A stretch of DNA of 64,000 nucleotides from a virus (Duplodnaviria; Heunggongvirae; Uroviricota; Caudoviricetes): the IMG/VR virus record IMGVR_UViG_2609460060_000003, positions 1 through 64,000 of that record, one strand, 5' to 3'. Shown here in pieces: positions 21,558 through 29,567 of this stretch. The notes under the pieces were generated by a model. The model saw nothing but the letters and a program-made list of their open reading frames with translations, was not told the DNA's origin and did not search any database. Numbering within the stretch: the stretch's first letter is position 1; every line of letters starts with the position of its first letter. A program made the translations under genes and the position numbers.

Positions 21558-21913
21558 AGCACCACGTCCTGTGTGATAGTTATATCCCTGATACGAATGG
21601 ATATTTTCAACTTATCAAAAGCATCTCCCTCGGCTACTGACAAGCCAGAAATCGGTATGTCAGGTAAATCTACCGTCAGTTTTTGCAACAGCATTGCCTC
21701 AACCGCAATTTGAACATGCGACAAGTTGGTCGGTTCGTGTTTAAACTGCGGTAAAACATTGCCCCATGACGGATCTCCGTATACCTCACCCTGATAAGTG
21801 TTTAGCCACTCATATAAACGAGCGCCCCAGGCCTCCTCCTGGGACTCATACGTTTTTACGCCGGATAACTCCAGCGTCAGTAAAGGATCAATTTCATTAT
21901 TGTTGGCCATCAA
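21554..21913 (-). CDS. Small tail morphogenesis protein
   Basis: 119 aa, overlaps both neighbours by 4 nt. Confidence 0.4.
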   Translation of the reverse strand: MMANNNEIDPLLTLELSGVKTYESQEEAWGARLYEWLNTYQGEVYGDPSWGNVLPQFKHEPTNLSHVQIAVEAMLLQKLTVDLPDIPISGLSVAEGDAFDKLKISIRIRDITITQDVVL

Positions 21914-24900
21914 TCAACTCTCGCGTAGTCATTCATCAACGGATCATCAATTGACAGTGGCACCGTGCGCATAACGCCCGGTTGAGGCGTGCTGACCTTT
22001 ACGACAGTTCCCTGGCCTTTCGCCGAGTCTTTAGTGTGCTCTTCAATCCTGGCAAGCAATGAGGTCATCTGCGCAAACAGCCGCTTCGTTTCACCATCAA
22101 GTGAAACGGTATTATCAGCCAACTGCATTGTCGGCTTGGCACCGGAGCCGCCAAGGTCACTAATAACCTGTCCGTCTATCTGCATACGACCGGTTGGTTG
22201 CTGCAAATCGTTGGCGGCAGTCGTCACCTGGGACGTGGAGGCTGGTTCAGGAGAATTATTTGAGCGCATTCCCCGGGCATTAATGAGTTTGTCATACAGT
22301 CCATCAATCCCCATTTGTGCGCCGAGCTGGTCAAAGTAACTTGAGTTGTTGGCCACCGGACGTGCCTCTTCAACTGGCATAGGTGTATCAACATACACAT
22401 TGCCAGCAGCCGTTGCGGTCCCCTTCCCTCGTGCACGTTCTTCGAGCGTTCCCTGAACAACTTCCCGACGCATCCCCCGGCCATTCAGGAATTTGCTGGC
22501 CAGATCGTTCACCCCCGTAAGTTCACCAATCCGGTCTACTAATCCCCCTTTTTCAAACGGGTTTTCGCCAGGGGTAAACGCCAGGCCCGTAGACTGATCA
22601 ACAAAGGCGTTTTCAGGAAGGTTATCCATTCTTGGTGATTGGCCACTTTGTTGCGGTCTTCCTCCTTGTGTTCCTGCTCTAGGTGTATAGATTTCACCAC
22701 CTAAATAGCGAGCACGATGAGTATTGACCTTGATCGCGTACTCACGGTTTTCTTTCGATAAGTCACCTGTGCCTTTTTTCCACTTATTAATAGTGCCAAA
22801 CCCAGCGTTATATGCAGTGATGGCCTCGTTTAAGTCTCCATTGGCTTGCTTCAGATACTTGCTCATGAGAAGAGCCGCAGCTTCTGCCGATTTTTCCGGA
22901 TTAAAAGAATCTTCCCGGGATAATCCAGTTTCCTCACGAGCAACGCGCGTAAACTGGAACATCCCGAGTGCGCCACCACTTAACTTTCCATCTGGTGATC
23001 TTGTAAGCGGAGACTTTGCGTTAGGATCCCCTCCTGATTCAGTTGCAGCAATCGCGTAAAGAGTGCCTTCAGGAAGACCATATTTATTCTCTAGTTCAGC
23101 AAAATACGGAGCTAACTTATCGAGATTTGCCTTACCTTCAGCGCCAAGGCTTCCGACTTTTACATCTAAGTTGCCATTATTGTAGGTATCAGCAGCTTTC
23201 TGAATGTCATTCCCAGTGCCGGTGGTATTACGCGACGATGATGACGAGCTATTTTGTCCAATAGCTGAATCAATTTTCCGCACCGCGCTATTGCCCATTT
23301 CTACGGCATTTGCATTGATAATCTGATTGGCAGTTTCTTTAACTGTTTTATTGCTATCTTTCGCCGTGTCCAGTGCCGCATTTATCACGCGGGTAGCAAT
23401 ATTAGTCTGTTTAGCATCGGATTCAGTTTTAGAATCAGATGTCTCCTGGTGGCTATTAACCGGAGCTTTTAACTCTGGAGTGATTTCTTTTGCATTAGCC
23501 TCGCCGATCGGATTGGGTATTTTTGATACAATCATTGCCGCAGGGGTATTTTTAACGGCATCAACCGCTGCATCTAATGCTTTACCGGGTAAATTTTTAA
23601 CCCCATCCCAAATATTACCAGCCGCCTCTTTAATGTGTTTCCCTGGGTTCTTAATGAAGTCAATTGCACTATCAATTGCATCACTGAAAACCTGTTTCAG
23701 GTTATCGACAGTAAAGAAGTCTTTGATGGCATCCAGCTTTTCAAGCAACTTATTAGATGTATCGCTAAACCATGCTGAAACAGCATCACCAATCTTTGCT
23801 GTGTAATCATCGAACTTGGTAGAAATGGTGTCGCCAAGGTTAGAAATATATGTTTCTAAGTTGGTAACCCCGCTATCAATGGCCTGGGCAATACTTTCCG
23901 TCGAAAATGATTGCAACATATTGCCGATATCCTCAAATCCAAGTGATTTGAGAACATCACCAATAGCACTGCTAATACCAGATACCAGTCCCCCCAAATC
24001 AAGAACATTGGCTAACGTATAAGCGGCTTTTTGCTGGAATGATGGATCTTGTCCTGATTTAAGCCCAAACGCTCGACGTTGCGCTTCTGTATCATTCCAA
24101 CCGGTTACCGCATCATAAATACCTCCAGCCACTGTGCCGACTAGGGGAATTGCGCGTAACGCCCCTTTACCAACTGCCTTTAATCCAAGTTTACCTGCTG
24201 CCCGGGCAGCCAAATCTCCGCCTTCATGGGCGAGAGTCTTCTTGCCCCCACCGCGTAGCATTCCTACGAGTCTCTTTGCCCCCAGAGCGCCAAAAGCGAG
24301 TGCTCCAGCTTTTTTCAGCATGCCACGCCCCATTAACAACGACGCGACGCCACCGGCCCCCTTCCCTAACAGGCTAAATAGTTTAGACAGCAAGCCGCCC
24401 TTCTTTTTCCCGGTGTTTTTGGCTATCTGATCAAGGGCGCTGAGAATCTTGTCATTGCCCTCTTTAATTTCGCTGGTCTGCTCCTGAAGTTCCTGAACCG
24501 TCCGTTTTTGGGTGTTAACCTGAACGACATCGGCACTATTTTGCGATTTACGCCTAAAAAAACCTTTTCTACGGCTGTTATCGTCATTGCCACGAATCAC
24601 ATCGGCAATAGACTTTCTGGCACCATTAAGCGATCCACCAACTTCTTTTGATATCCCGCCAAGCTCCTTCCCTGCTGCCCACAATGGACCAGCAACGGCA
24701 TAACCTAACGCATCAACGGCACGAGTCTCTGAAGGGTTACCTATGCCTTCAGCTACTTTTGACAGTTTTTTTAATAAACCTGATTCAGCATTTAGACGCT
24801 CATCATCCTCTTTGCGCCTGGCCTTTTCAGCACGTTCAGCACGGGCATCTTCCGCTGCGGCCTTACTCCCTGACTTTCCAATAAAACGACCACGCGCATC

Positions 24901-25644
24901 GCGTTGGTTTTGGCTTTTTTGCGCACCGCCTTTTTGATCGAACATTTCGCGAGCGTGTTCGGCTGCTTCGGTCCGTTGTGCCTTTATATCCTCTGGTATA
25001 GCCTTCCTGCGTCGTTTTTTACCCTTTGGTGTAGTTGATTTGGCCTGCTGTTCCTGTTGAGCAATGCCCTCCTGAACTACACGAGAAACGTCCCCTAAAT
25101 TAAGCCGTTTCATTGCGTCAACAATAGGGTCTACTGATGGCGCATTGGCCACAAAGTCTGGCCGGGAATTTTCGATTGTTCGATTTAATGCCGACACACT
25201 GCGAGATACTGGGTCAACCGTTGCAACGCGTTCCCCTTTCAAATCACGAGCGAGTTTAACCGTTTCTAACCGCTGTGCTTTAACATCCTCTGTTATTGCC
25301 TCTCTTCGTCTATTTGGGGGATTGTGCGCTGTTGGTGCAGCCTGCTGTGCACGGTTAGTGACTTTGTCCTCCCGTATACGAGAAACGTCCCCTAAATTAA
25401 GCCGTTTTATTGCGTCAACAATAGGGTCCACTGATGGCGCATTGGTCACAAAGTCAGGACGTGAATTTTCGATTGTGCGATTTAATGCCGACACACTGCG
25501 AGAGACAGGATCAACAGTTGCAACTCGTTCCCCTTTCAAATCTTCAACAGCTTCCCGAATACCTGCAAGCTCTTCCAGCTCTTTCGCGCTGGCGGTTTCA
25601 ACTGTCCTTATAACATCGTCAATATTGGCGTTTTTTCTTTCCAT
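21910..25644 (-). CDS. sit: Tape-measure-like structural protein with lytic transglycosylase domain (Sit-like)
   Basis: 1244 aa; internal duplicated segment (VATVDPVSRSVSALNRTIENSRPDF twice); SLT-like motif ATESGGDPNAKS...GALGMFQF; Gly/Ala-rich segments. Confidence 0.8.
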   Translation of the reverse strand: MERKNANIDDVIRTVETASAKELEELAGIREAVEDLKGERVATVDPVSRSVSALNRTIENSRPDFVTNAPSVDPIVDAIKRLNLGDVSRIREDKVTNRAQQAAPTAHNPPNRRREAITEDVKAQRLETVKLARDLKGERVATVDPVSRSVSALNRTIENSRPDFVANAPSVDPIVDAMKRLNLGDVSRVVQEGIAQQEQQAKSTTPKGKKRRRKAIPEDIKAQRTEAAEHAREMFDQKGGAQKSQNQRDARGRFIGKSGSKAAAEDARAERAEKARRKEDDERLNAESGLLKKLSKVAEGIGNPSETRAVDALGYAVAGPLWAAGKELGGISKEVGGSLNGARKSIADVIRGNDDNSRRKGFFRRKSQNSADVVQVNTQKRTVQELQEQTSEIKEGNDKILSALDQIAKNTGKKKGGLLSKLFSLLGKGAGGVASLLMGRGMLKKAGALAFGALGAKRLVGMLRGGGKKTLAHEGGDLAARAAGKLGLKAVGKGALRAIPLVGTVAGGIYDAVTGWNDTEAQRRAFGLKSGQDPSFQQKAAYTLANVLDLGGLVSGISSAIGDVLKSLGFEDIGNMLQSFSTESIAQAIDSGVTNLETYISNLGDTISTKFDDYTAKIGDAVSAWFSDTSNKLLEKLDAIKDFFTVDNLKQVFSDAIDSAIDFIKNPGKHIKEAAGNIWDGVKNLPGKALDAAVDAVKNTPAAMIVSKIPNPIGEANAKEITPELKAPVNSHQETSDSKTESDAKQTNIATRVINAALDTAKDSNKTVKETANQIINANAVEMGNSAVRKIDSAIGQNSSSSSSRNTTGTGNDIQKAADTYNNGNLDVKVGSLGAEGKANLDKLAPYFAELENKYGLPEGTLYAIAATESGGDPNAKSPLTRSPDGKLSGGALGMFQFTRVAREETGLSREDSFNPEKSAEAAALLMSKYLKQANGDLNEAITAYNAGFGTINKWKKGTGDLSKENREYAIKVNTHRARYLGGEIYTPRAGTQGGRPQQSGQSPRMDNLPENAFVDQSTGLAFTPGENPFEKGGLVDRIGELTGVNDLASKFLNGRGMRREVVQGTLEERARGKGTATAAGNVYVDTPMPVEEARPVANNSSYFDQLGAQMGIDGLYDKLINARGMRSNNSPEPASTSQVTTAANDLQQPTGRMQIDGQVISDLGGSGAKPTMQLADNTVSLDGETKRLFAQMTSLLARIEEHTKDSAKGQGTVVKVSTPQPGVMRTVPLSIDDPLMNDYARVD

Positions 25645-27243: not shown

Positions 27244-27834
<591 letters not shown>

Positions 27835-27890
27835 TTAACAGATTCTACGAGTTGTCATTTGTGACAGTATGCTCGCAATCGTAGTGATTA

Positions 27891-28430
27891 CTACCACCAA
27901 CTGCTAGCTTTCTTCTCTCTAGCTTTTCCTTCGCTTTGCAGTAAATCTTTACTTCCTGTAGAAATATTTCTATTTGCATCAGCCTCAGACTGAATTACAT
28001 CTGTCTTAGCTGCTCTCTCCTTCAACTCCTGCTCTATAAAATCGTTTTCTCGCTGGACACGAGCCGCTTTTGCTTGCAGTTCGAGTTTCATGCTTTCGAG
28101 TTGCAGCTTGCGAAGCTCATCCTCATAAGCTTGATCTCGCTTCTTGTCATTTGCTAGCTCGGCTTCTCGTTTCGCTCTACGTTCATTTTCTGCAGCAACA
28201 CGCTGTTTTTCGCGTGCAGCAGCGGCAGATGCTGCTTTTTCTCTTCTAATACGTTCAGCTTGTGCTTGTTGGCGAATAAGTTCTTTTCTGGCATCCTCAG
28301 CTTGCTGCTCTTTAGCTCGCCCTTCATTTTCCGCTTGAGCAATAGCAGCAATTTGACTTTGCAACGAGTTAGCCAAGGCAGTGCCTACACTAAACGTAGA
28401 AAAGATTAGAAATAAAATAATTTTATTCAT
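27891..28430 (-). CDS. Secreted Ala/Glu/Arg/Lys-rich alpha-helical protein (TolA domain II-like); candidate superinfection exclusion factor
   Basis: Signal peptide MNKIILFLIFSTFSVGTALA; mature part is charged repetitive coiled coil. Confidence 0.5.
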   Translation of the reverse strand: MNKIILFLIFSTFSVGTALANSLQSQIAAIAQAENEGRAKEQQAEDARKELIRQQAQAERIRREKAASAAAAREKQRVAAENERRAKREAELANDKKRDQAYEDELRKLQLESMKLELQAKAARVQRENDFIEQELKERAAKTDVIQSEADANRNISTGSKDLLQSEGKAREKKASSWW

Positions 28431-28433
28431 AAA

Positions 28434-28955
28434 TTATTTCTTTTCTGGACAAGTAGCATTTGGCTGAATTCGAGTTTCATTATCTTTAGTTGAAATAAGC
28501 ACAGCAAGCCCCGTTGTAAACTGGCATGCTTTACCAACTTGAGTTGAAGTGAACACCTTAGTTCCTTCTTTATAAGTCAGTGAAACACCTTCAACAATTG
28601 TTTTATCACTAACCAAAGAACCAGCCGCTGCACCAAGAGCCGCACCACCAGTACCGCCAGCTACAGCACCCAGTGTCGATGTGCCTTTAACATTATAACC
28701 GGCAACGCCCCCAGCAACAGCTCCCAGTACCGCACCAAATGTCTGTGCCGCTTCTTTATTAGCTTTATTATCAACTTTCACTTTAGCTGGAAGCACAGAG
28801 ATAATATTGACTGTCTTTGTTTCCTGCTTCGAATTCAATTGAGCGGTATCATAAACATCGGCAGCATAATCAGCACCGCTAGATTGACACCCAGAAAGAA
28901 GAATTGCAGATACAACAAGAGCGCATAAAGTATACTTTTTAGACATAAGAATCAT
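28434..28955 (-). CDS. Glycine-zipper outer-membrane lipoprotein (SlyB/Pcp-like)
   Basis: Lipobox LLSGC; GAVLGAVAGGVAGY...GAVAGGTGGAALGAAAG glycine zipper. Confidence 0.6.
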   Translation of the reverse strand: MILMSKKYTLCALVVSAILLSGCQSSGADYAADVYDTAQLNSKQETKTVNIISVLPAKVKVDNKANKEAAQTFGAVLGAVAGGVAGYNVKGTSTLGAVAGGTGGAALGAAAGSLVSDKTIVEGVSLTYKEGTKVFTSTQVGKACQFTTGLAVLISTKDNETRIQPNATCPEKK

Positions 28956-29236
28956 CCCAGAAAAACAAAAACCGGCGAGAAGTTACCACGAGAACGGAAA
29001 GTAAACAAGAATACTCCCATTGACTTATATCAATTAATCAACTTTTTATAAGCTATCCCTAACTTATTGTGTATAGCTGAAAAGTCAGAGACAAGTTCAC
29101 CATCTGCATTATTTCTTAAGTTAATAGTTTATTGCTAACTTAATTTATGCATCGACTATTGATATCCATCTTAAAGTTACAATATCCCTCTGCATTATTT
29201 TTCATCACAAATAATATATCTATTGCACGACACTAA

Positions 29237-29253
29237 TCTGCTCTAATAAATTT
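29237..29253. promoter_or_regulatory. C1 operator-like site upstream of the c4/icd/ant promoter
   Basis: TCTGCTCTAATAAATTT, 15/17 match to the operator consensus. Confidence 0.5.
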
Positions 29254-29291: not shown

Positions 29292-29320
29292 TTGACCTTT
29301 TAATCGTTCAGGCTTATAGT
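29292..29320 (+). promoter_or_regulatory. Sigma-70 promoter of the immI (c4-icd-ant) transcript
   Basis: TTGACC, 17-bp spacer, TATAGT. Confidence 0.6.
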
Positions 29321-29439
29321 TTCGCCGTCGTAGCAAATTCTGCGACCGGGTTTAGCAGCCTGAATGATTGTGCGGACAGCCGCAGATATCCGATATTGCG
29401 GTATTTTTGTGTCCGTAAAACCGCGTTACGCCCAAATTA

Positions 29440-29515
29440 TGGTGGGGCGTGATGGGGAGGCTTCGGCCTGCTGGTTTCACAATCGCCAGTCTGCTAACCC
29501 CGTCACGTCCTGCCA
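29440..29515 (+). ncRNA. c4: c4-type antisense repressor RNA (approximate boundaries)
   Basis: Contains CACAATC and CTGCTAA, complementary to the motif GTTTAGCAGC...GATTGTG that occurs upstream (29350-29372) and again over the icd RBS (29519-29556). Confidence 0.5.
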
Positions 29516-29567
29516 CCTGTTTAGCAGCGGGTAGCAGGTTGTTAAACCTGATTGTGAGGCCGTAACT

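Follow-up and report, generated by a model that had tools for sequence, protein, structure and literature searches.

In phages of the P1 family, a described system for comparison is simABC of P1 itself. References cited in PMC8546580 attribute superinfection exclusion to Sim, the simABC region is one of eight variable regions in P1-like phage-plasmids (PMC9603915), and P1 still forms plaques without sim (PMC10695390). Small outer-membrane lipoproteins are also carried as cargo by other mobile elements, as is the case for T5 Llp, phi80 and N15 Cor, lambda Bor and F-plasmid TraT.

The second point of comparison is a chromosomal gene pair, yfgH-yfgI. Escherichia coli YfgH, characterised only in a 2025 preprint, resides in the outer membrane, and its loss results in SDS/EDTA sensitivity, higher permeability and depletion of outer-membrane proteins; furthermore, its overexpression rescues knock-downs of membrane biogenesis genes, its pull-downs contain BamA, LptD, OmpF/C/A, LamB and TonB-dependent receptors, and it was modelled as SlyB-like rings (bioRxiv 10.64898/2025.12.22.696046). 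YfgI, which is unmentioned in that preprint, belongs to the DUF5384 family and has no known function. The sole hints for this family are a nalidixic acid-sensitive mutant – a yfgI knockout with 7% survival on nalidixic acid and near-normal survival on two other drugs (PMC3536626) – and regulation in S. Typhi, where the orthologous pair srgIL is induced by SdiA and AHL (PMC11619404). The nalidixic acid phenotype would be equally compatible with altered permeability, YfgI being exported. Literature searches on DUF5384, upf50.0/upf50.5, P7 superimmunity and phage-borne SlyB-like lipoproteins returned nothing relevant.

An allelic cassette in the sim slot

The window (the whole stretch of 64,000 nucleotides analysed here) comes from a phage-plasmid of the P1/P7 family (Punavirus). 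A query of 3 kb spanning the gene pair of interest is 99.8% identical to phi456, 99.2% to RCS47 and 98.8% to P7, whereas in P1 only the flanks match. Comparing the window with the P1 locus by blastn, we found that P1 homology stops at 27862 and restarts at 29239, leaving 1376 bp (27863-29238, minus strand) without a P1 counterpart. The corresponding gap in P1 measures 1513 bp and, according to the P1 annotation, is filled by simC-simB-simA and their predicted promoters. Given these borders and the sim genes filling the gap of P1, window 27863-29238 is an allelic cassette that stands in for P1 simABC. The annotations and blastn borders thus bear out the original prediction that the pair lies in the same place as P1 sim, between the tail genes and c4/icd/ant.

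Both borders fall on regulatory elements. The left one adjoins the -22 box of LPsit (27842-27861, minus strand; carried over from the P7 and P1 GenBank annotations), the late promoter of the pmgC-tub-pmgB-sit operon, which abuts the cassette and belongs to the P1/P7 backbone. An 18-nt inverted repeat (89% complementary; 27811-27857) covers LPsit and the start of pmgC; this, too, is a feature of the P1 backbone and is probably tied to late-promoter control. The right end of the cassette coincides with the C1 repressor operator Op51/Oc4 (29237-29253, plus strand; transferred by offset from the P7 annotation), which controls the c4-icd-ant (immI) operon; the c4 a1b1 targets (29314-29366) and C4 RNA (29435-29520) were located with Rfam.

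The cassette encodes two proteins on the minus strand. The first gene, for a YfgH-like lipoprotein of 173 aa (28434-28955; upf50.5 in P7), is followed after 3 nt (15 nt in K-12) by a YfgI-like DUF5384 gene of 179 codons (27891-28430; upf50.0 in P7). Both are already on record through the P7 genome annotation, which labels Upf50.5 an 'outer membrane lipoprotein of unknown function' and Upf50.0 a 'membrane protein of unknown function', adding for the latter a likeness to putative E. coli K12 membrane proteins.

Upstream of the lipoprotein gene lies a cassette-specific region of 283 bp with 32-36% GC (28956-29238, minus strand), which presumably holds the cassette's own promoter. A weak sigma-70-like site is found on the minus strand at 29222-29194, and the consensus scan that located it did not rise above chance. 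The upstream regions of two P1-like alleles of the cassette, otherwise diverged, have a 34-nt block in common and an identical ribosome-binding region. Within this block, at 29019-29034, lies the palindrome ATTGACTTATATCAAT (ATTGAT-N4-ATCAAT type), which is essentially unique in the window and is a candidate operator. The upstream regions of K-12 yfgH and of the cassette have no alignable similarity.

LPsit and the late tail operon follow immediately downstream of the cassette in the same orientation, and a scan for a terminator between the cassette and LPsit found none. This arrangement would suit a role in the lytic cycle, in which the cassette shares transcription with the neighbouring late operon, or is read through into it, and its products stabilise the outer membrane of the producer until lysis, or guard against lysis from without. 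We regard such a role as improbable: the cassette is interchangeable with sim, which plaque formation does not need, and with other cassettes, the annotation lists no late-promoter element ahead of the cassette, and the copies found in P2-like prophages (see below) point away from the tail genes and are preceded by a consensus sigma-70 promoter.

Relationship of the pair to chromosomal yfgH and yfgI

The likely translation start of the lipoprotein gene is at 28946. The signal sequence ends in a lipobox, AILLSG followed by Cys23 and QSS, and Cys23 (codon at 28887-28889) is invariant across 67 homologues. A glycine-zipper hairpin occupies residues 74-112 (about nt 28620-28736), with G74, G78 and G82 invariant, and the predicted model places helices at 64-84 and 94-114; the C-terminal beta domain has two invariant cysteines, and all family-invariant residues are kept. 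Aligned pairwise with YfgH of the K-12 lineage, the phage protein is 67% identical over 171 aa without a gap (E = 6e-73). SlyB (7ojf) was the sole significant structural match, and the hairpin and beta-domain fold agrees with it, the model itself being of low confidence overall (mean pLDDT 55.7; 70-80 in the beta domain). In good agreement with the original prediction of a SlyB/Pcp-like lipoprotein, lipobox, two-helix hairpin and a beta domain with two conserved cysteines are thus found in the phage protein just as in E. coli YfgH and SlyB. Pfam glycine-zipper models remained sub-threshold (18.2 versus 24.2 bits). TraT (PF05818) gave a weak match over the glycine-zipper region, 23.1 bits against a gathering cutoff of 31, and this lead was dropped as sub-threshold and without support from fold searches.

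The lipoprotein also has the same operon partner as YfgH. The DUF5384 protein scores 147.8 bits with Pfam PF17358 (gathering cutoff 25; E = 3e-43) and is 47% identical to E. coli YfgI, collinear across 179 aa (E = 9e-46), with a Smith-Waterman z of 33 against shuffles. It shares with E. coli YfgI and S. Typhi SrgL a signal peptide (codons at 28371-28430), an N-terminal conserved motif (SLQxQ..A.AQAE), a charged spacer and a C-terminal module, and with YfgI its length of 179 aa and its position directly downstream of the lipoprotein gene, even though only 47% of residues are identical. An alignment and entropy profile delimits the variable charged spacer to residues ~36-91 (nt 28158-28325) and the conserved module to residues ~92-179 (nt 27894-28157); all seven invariant residues (D104, A141, S148, A150, D151, R154 and G159) are kept. 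The predicted model is one unbroken helix of ~24 nm from residue 3 to residue 178 (pLDDT 87.6), and the composition is rich in Ala, Glu, Lys, Arg and Gln. The prediction of an exported helical protein was therefore correct.

Its further proposal, that this helix mimics TolA domain II, found no such backing. A mimic of this kind would titrate Tol partners and block Tol-dependent colicins or filamentous phage, and the physical likeness is there: both are long helices rich in Ala, Lys and Glu that could span much of the periplasm. Nevertheless, the Smith-Waterman score against TolA was 124 versus 113 +/- 9.7 for shuffled sequences (z = 1.15), with 44 of 300 shuffles scoring equal or higher; BLASTP with E. 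coli TolA gave E = 0.037 in a low-complexity part, and no TolA model was matched in NCBIfam or Pfam. TolA binds TolQR, TolB, g3p and colicins through its N-terminal anchor and domain III; the phage protein has a cleavable signal peptide in place of the anchor and is without domain III. We therefore rejected homology to TolA. By these alignments the likeness is physical and compositional, not evolutionary, and it falls in the least conserved, length-variable spacer, making a TolA mimic very unlikely.

The pairing itself is general. A DNA search found the chromosomal yfgH-yfgI locus, at about 69% identity, in 5420 of the 5426 complete E. coli genomes, and, with one representative genome per species, a YfgH-type gene immediately precedes the DUF5384 gene on the same strand in 78 of 80 species loci. 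The linked loci span the Enterobacterales, Pasteurellaceae, Pseudomonas, Aeromonadales, Vibrionaceae and a few others, and linkage of the two genes is obligate across Proteobacteria. The phage pair (173 and 179 aa) and E. coli YfgH/YfgI (172 and 179 aa) have the same gene order. Since order and lengths are the same, homology is full-length and the pairing holds across species, the phage carries a complete two-gene module, and the pair is almost certainly a phage copy of yfgH-yfgI. The original prediction had opposed to its exclusion idea both homology of the pair to housekeeping envelope proteins and lack of an exclusion phenotype; of these two, the former, clear homology to the chromosomal envelope genes yfgH and yfgI, is what we find. 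The phage lipoprotein differs from YfgH in sitting in an immunity-adjacent cargo slot and belonging to a separate, largely mobile clade; the divergence is greatest in the hairpin loop, and the upstream regions differ.

Comparison with known exclusion proteins, suggested at the outset, gave nothing of the kind. There was no homology to SimA/B/C (best BLASTP E = 0.07 over 30 aa), neither protein matched a Cor or Llp family in Pfam (E <= 1) or PHROGs (E <= 0.01), and neither matched a tail or exclusion PHROG. PADLOC models yielded 0 families for both proteins, NCBIfam nothing meaningful for the pair, and PDB sequence searches zero matches for either; neither resembles any other protein encoded in the window, Sit included. 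In contrast to Cor, Llp, Bor and TraT, which it resembles as mobile-element cargo, the phage lipoprotein is without a match to those families and has an obligate periplasmic partner as well as a host housekeeping orthologue.

Mobile relatives and polymorphism of the slot

In a neighbour-joining tree (without bootstrap) the window allele, a second allele with 80% protein identity, an island copy (78%) and prophage copies (about 68%) form one clade, and the chromosomal yfgI orthologues of Escherichia, Citrobacter and Salmonella, 46-48% identical, lie outside it. One member (P0016) looks chromosomal, so mobile copies make up most but not all of the clade. Integrase and transposase genes border the island copy. 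The prophage copies, one from E. coli (P0006; 24 or more contigs) and one from Salmonella (P0008), sit at the extreme end of P2-like myovirus prophages, whose chromosomal sites differ; there the pairs follow directly after the tail-fibre and fibre-assembly genes in opposite orientation. Both have a near-consensus sigma-70 promoter, TTGACA-16 nt-TATATT, some 45 nt ahead of the lipoprotein gene (L011:7140-7475, L014:8186-8437), a hallmark of autonomously expressed morons. Prophage ends after the tail-fibre genes are the classic site of exclusion morons such as cor, llp and P2 fun.

Between the window allele and either the 80% allele or a prophage copy (alleles 80% and 69% identical), dN/dS is 0.04-0.07, an approximate figure because dS is near saturation. 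Both genes are thus under strong purifying selection, with clear constraint. This bears on the possibility that the cassette is functionless DNA captured from a bacterial chromosome and hitch-hiking with the phage, for which one could cite the chromosomal homologues and the AT-rich region in a recombination hot spot. With such dN/dS values, ORFs intact in 166 plasmids, and mobile copies that group in a separate clade and have entered unrelated phages, we consider hitch-hiking scarcely credible.

Two further records deserve mention. Phage TL-2011b was rejected as an independent carrier: the end of its record (NC_019445 41360-44784; L004:1680-3425) holds yfgI, yfgH, yfgG and a pdeF fragment in K-12 order and is host flank (yfgG-yfgH-yfgI-pdeF). 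The prophage border has been drawn too wide, and host genes have thereby entered phage protein families. On pYLMB10c (NZ_CP073991; L005:1172-4270), a mobilisable 7.5-kb ColE1-type plasmid, a phosphoethanolamine transferase gene lies by YfgH-like and DUF5384 genes, the latter with an in-frame stop and probably a pseudogene; this plasmid is a further mobile context, linked to lipid A modification.

The sim slot is polymorphic: at least three types of cassette occupy it, in similar numbers. At a coverage of at least 80%, we counted 166 PLSDB plasmids with the window cassette, 137 with simABC and 81 with a third type (gp34/gp35 of phage Ro157c2YLVW), counts that mirror database sampling and clonal redundancy. 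All 166 copies of the window cassette are at least 99% identical, with both ORFs intact, and the DNA search found this allele plasmid-borne in 182 of the 5426 complete E. coli genomes. Every protein of all cassette types has an N-terminal export signal.

IncY P1-like plasmids carry the 80% allele, accompanied by an additional DUF559 gene. In pE2 (NZ_CP086663; L006:3356-4615) this gene lies between the cassette and pmgC and encodes 419 aa, with N-terminal membrane segments and a DUF559 domain; because this domain is endonuclease-like, the gene may be a defence gene sharing the sim slot. The gp35 of the third cassette type (L007:2898-3545) is an exported protein of 215 aa. Since its N-terminus is identical to P1 SimA, SimA (52 aa) looks like a truncated remnant. 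Furthermore, a 30-aa segment of gp35, with the motif VQGTLEERARG, is 63% identical (E = 9e-7) to Sit near residues 1055-1085, which suggests that gp35 may be a Sit mimic with a role in exclusion. Sit itself (sit, 21910-25644) contains in its N-terminal part a 212-nt direct repeat of 84% identity (25034-25245 and 25331-25542, minus strand) with a spacing of 297 nt (99 aa). The window's Sit, a putative tape-measure/injection protein, is 1244 aa long; its P1 counterpart, from a gene of 3423 nt, has about 1140 aa. The difference is consistent with one additional repeat unit.

Possible roles: envelope hardening and entry exclusion

The best explanation of the cassette is lysogenic conversion, with the two proteins remodelling or hardening the outer membrane of the lysogen; we give this reading a probability of about 0.5. 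The broader statement, that the pair has an envelope-remodelling role expressed in the lysogen, is likely. The mobile yfgHI copy would be accessory lysogenic-conversion cargo in the simABC slot of P1, a status argued for by the dispensability of sim, the variability of the slot, the cassette's own AT-rich upstream region and the promoter-bearing copies at prophage ends. After sorting to the outer membrane, the phage lipoprotein would, through its glycine-zipper hairpin, form rings around outer-membrane proteins and lipid patches like YfgH and SlyB, from whose literature its location, ring oligomers and binding of outer-membrane proteins are extrapolated. On the periplasmic side, the rod-like DUF5384 partner may serve the lipoprotein as tether or spacer. 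Transcribed in the lysogen from its own promoter, the module would provide the host with a second, phage-controlled outer-membrane stabiliser, and the envelope might thereby better withstand membrane-active agents, detergents or bile, and perhaps also incoming phage. What we infer is that the module is expressed in the lysogen, that rings form, that the two proteins cooperate, and what the benefit is.

Hardening is favoured by the full-length collinear yfgHI homology, general linkage, SlyB fold, invariant residues and low dN/dS, as well as by the published outer-membrane phenotypes of YfgH and the nalidixic acid phenotype of yfgI. It must be reconciled with several observations: the host already has its own yfgHI pair (67% and 47% identical), the promoter scan of the cassette is at the level of chance, the lipoprotein model is of low overall confidence, and replacement of the sim locus together with the tail-fibre-adjacent prophage copies points at least equally to a function directed at phages.

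The main rival is accordingly a dedicated superinfection-exclusion module that blocks entry as a functional analogue of Sim. Here the lipoprotein would cage or mask outer-membrane receptors, or stiffen the membrane at the site of penetration, and the rod would obstruct or misdirect the tail tube, the Sit transglycosylase or the DNA en route to the inner membrane, such that P1-like or other phages would adsorb yet fail to deliver their DNA. The genomic surroundings give this reading genuine, if indirect, support. The window cassette occupies the exact slot of simABC with identical borders and, just like simABC, is accessory and encodes exported proteins only. The polymorphism of the slot (166, 137 and 81 plasmids), export signals throughout all cassettes, and the segment that gp35 has in common with Sit, suggestive of slot products aimed at the infection machinery, point the same way, as do the strong promoter and location right behind tail-fibre genes of the prophage yfgHI copies. 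Moreover, the YfgH partners OmpF/C/A, LamB and TonB-dependent receptors are phage receptors, and the hairpin loop is the most variable segment of the mature lipoprotein. On the other hand, simABC comprises three genes rather than two, bears no sequence likeness to the pair, and is the only one of the two for which an exclusion phenotype is known; homology to SimA/B/C, Cor/Llp and PADLOC models is lacking. Chromosomal orthologues are present in nearly every E. coli, including phage-sensitive K-12, and the fold alone therefore does not exclude phage. Identity of at least 99% across 166 plasmids, and selection that is purifying rather than diversifying, likewise speak against an exclusion module. 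We consider dedicated exclusion possible yet doubtful. Equally tentative is its wider form, in which at least two unrelated temperate lineages, P1-like phage-plasmids and P2-like prophages, would have co-opted a SlyB-type nanodomain lipoprotein and a rod as a new class of entry exclusion that cages receptors or seals the penetration site, replacing Sim in most P1-like elements. Hardening and entry exclusion are not mutually exclusive, and that general membrane hardening, over dedicated exclusion of phages, is the main pay-off comes close to an even bet.

The yfgHI genes are an obligately linked pair that has been picked up repeatedly by mobile elements, and the cassette offers a handle on a poorly understood module. 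The window cassette is the commonest allele of P1-like phage-plasmids, which are frequent carriers of resistance genes. If it is expressed in lysogens, about 3% of complete E. coli genomes (182/5426) carry an extra, phage-controlled outer-membrane module, with possible effects on detergent or bile tolerance, antibiotic permeability or phage susceptibility. If the cassette does exclude phage, this would be a new exclusion mechanism and would explain the polymorphism of the sim slot.

The P7 annotation of the genes and the variability of the sim region were known previously. New here are the precise allelic relation to sim, the structural assignment, and the recognition of a complete yfgHI module in a mostly mobile clade that extends to P2-like prophages. 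Labels elsewhere differ: phi456 annotates the pair as 'minor tail protein' and 'tail tip protein', and PHROGs names the YfgH-like lipoprotein family (phrog_1277) 'DNA methyltransferase', the sole named PHROG label that we found. The latter also appears in phage records (NC_050152, NC_042128, NC_031129 and NC_019445, with OR339795 listed alongside). Both the methyltransferase and the tail labels are propagated misannotations.
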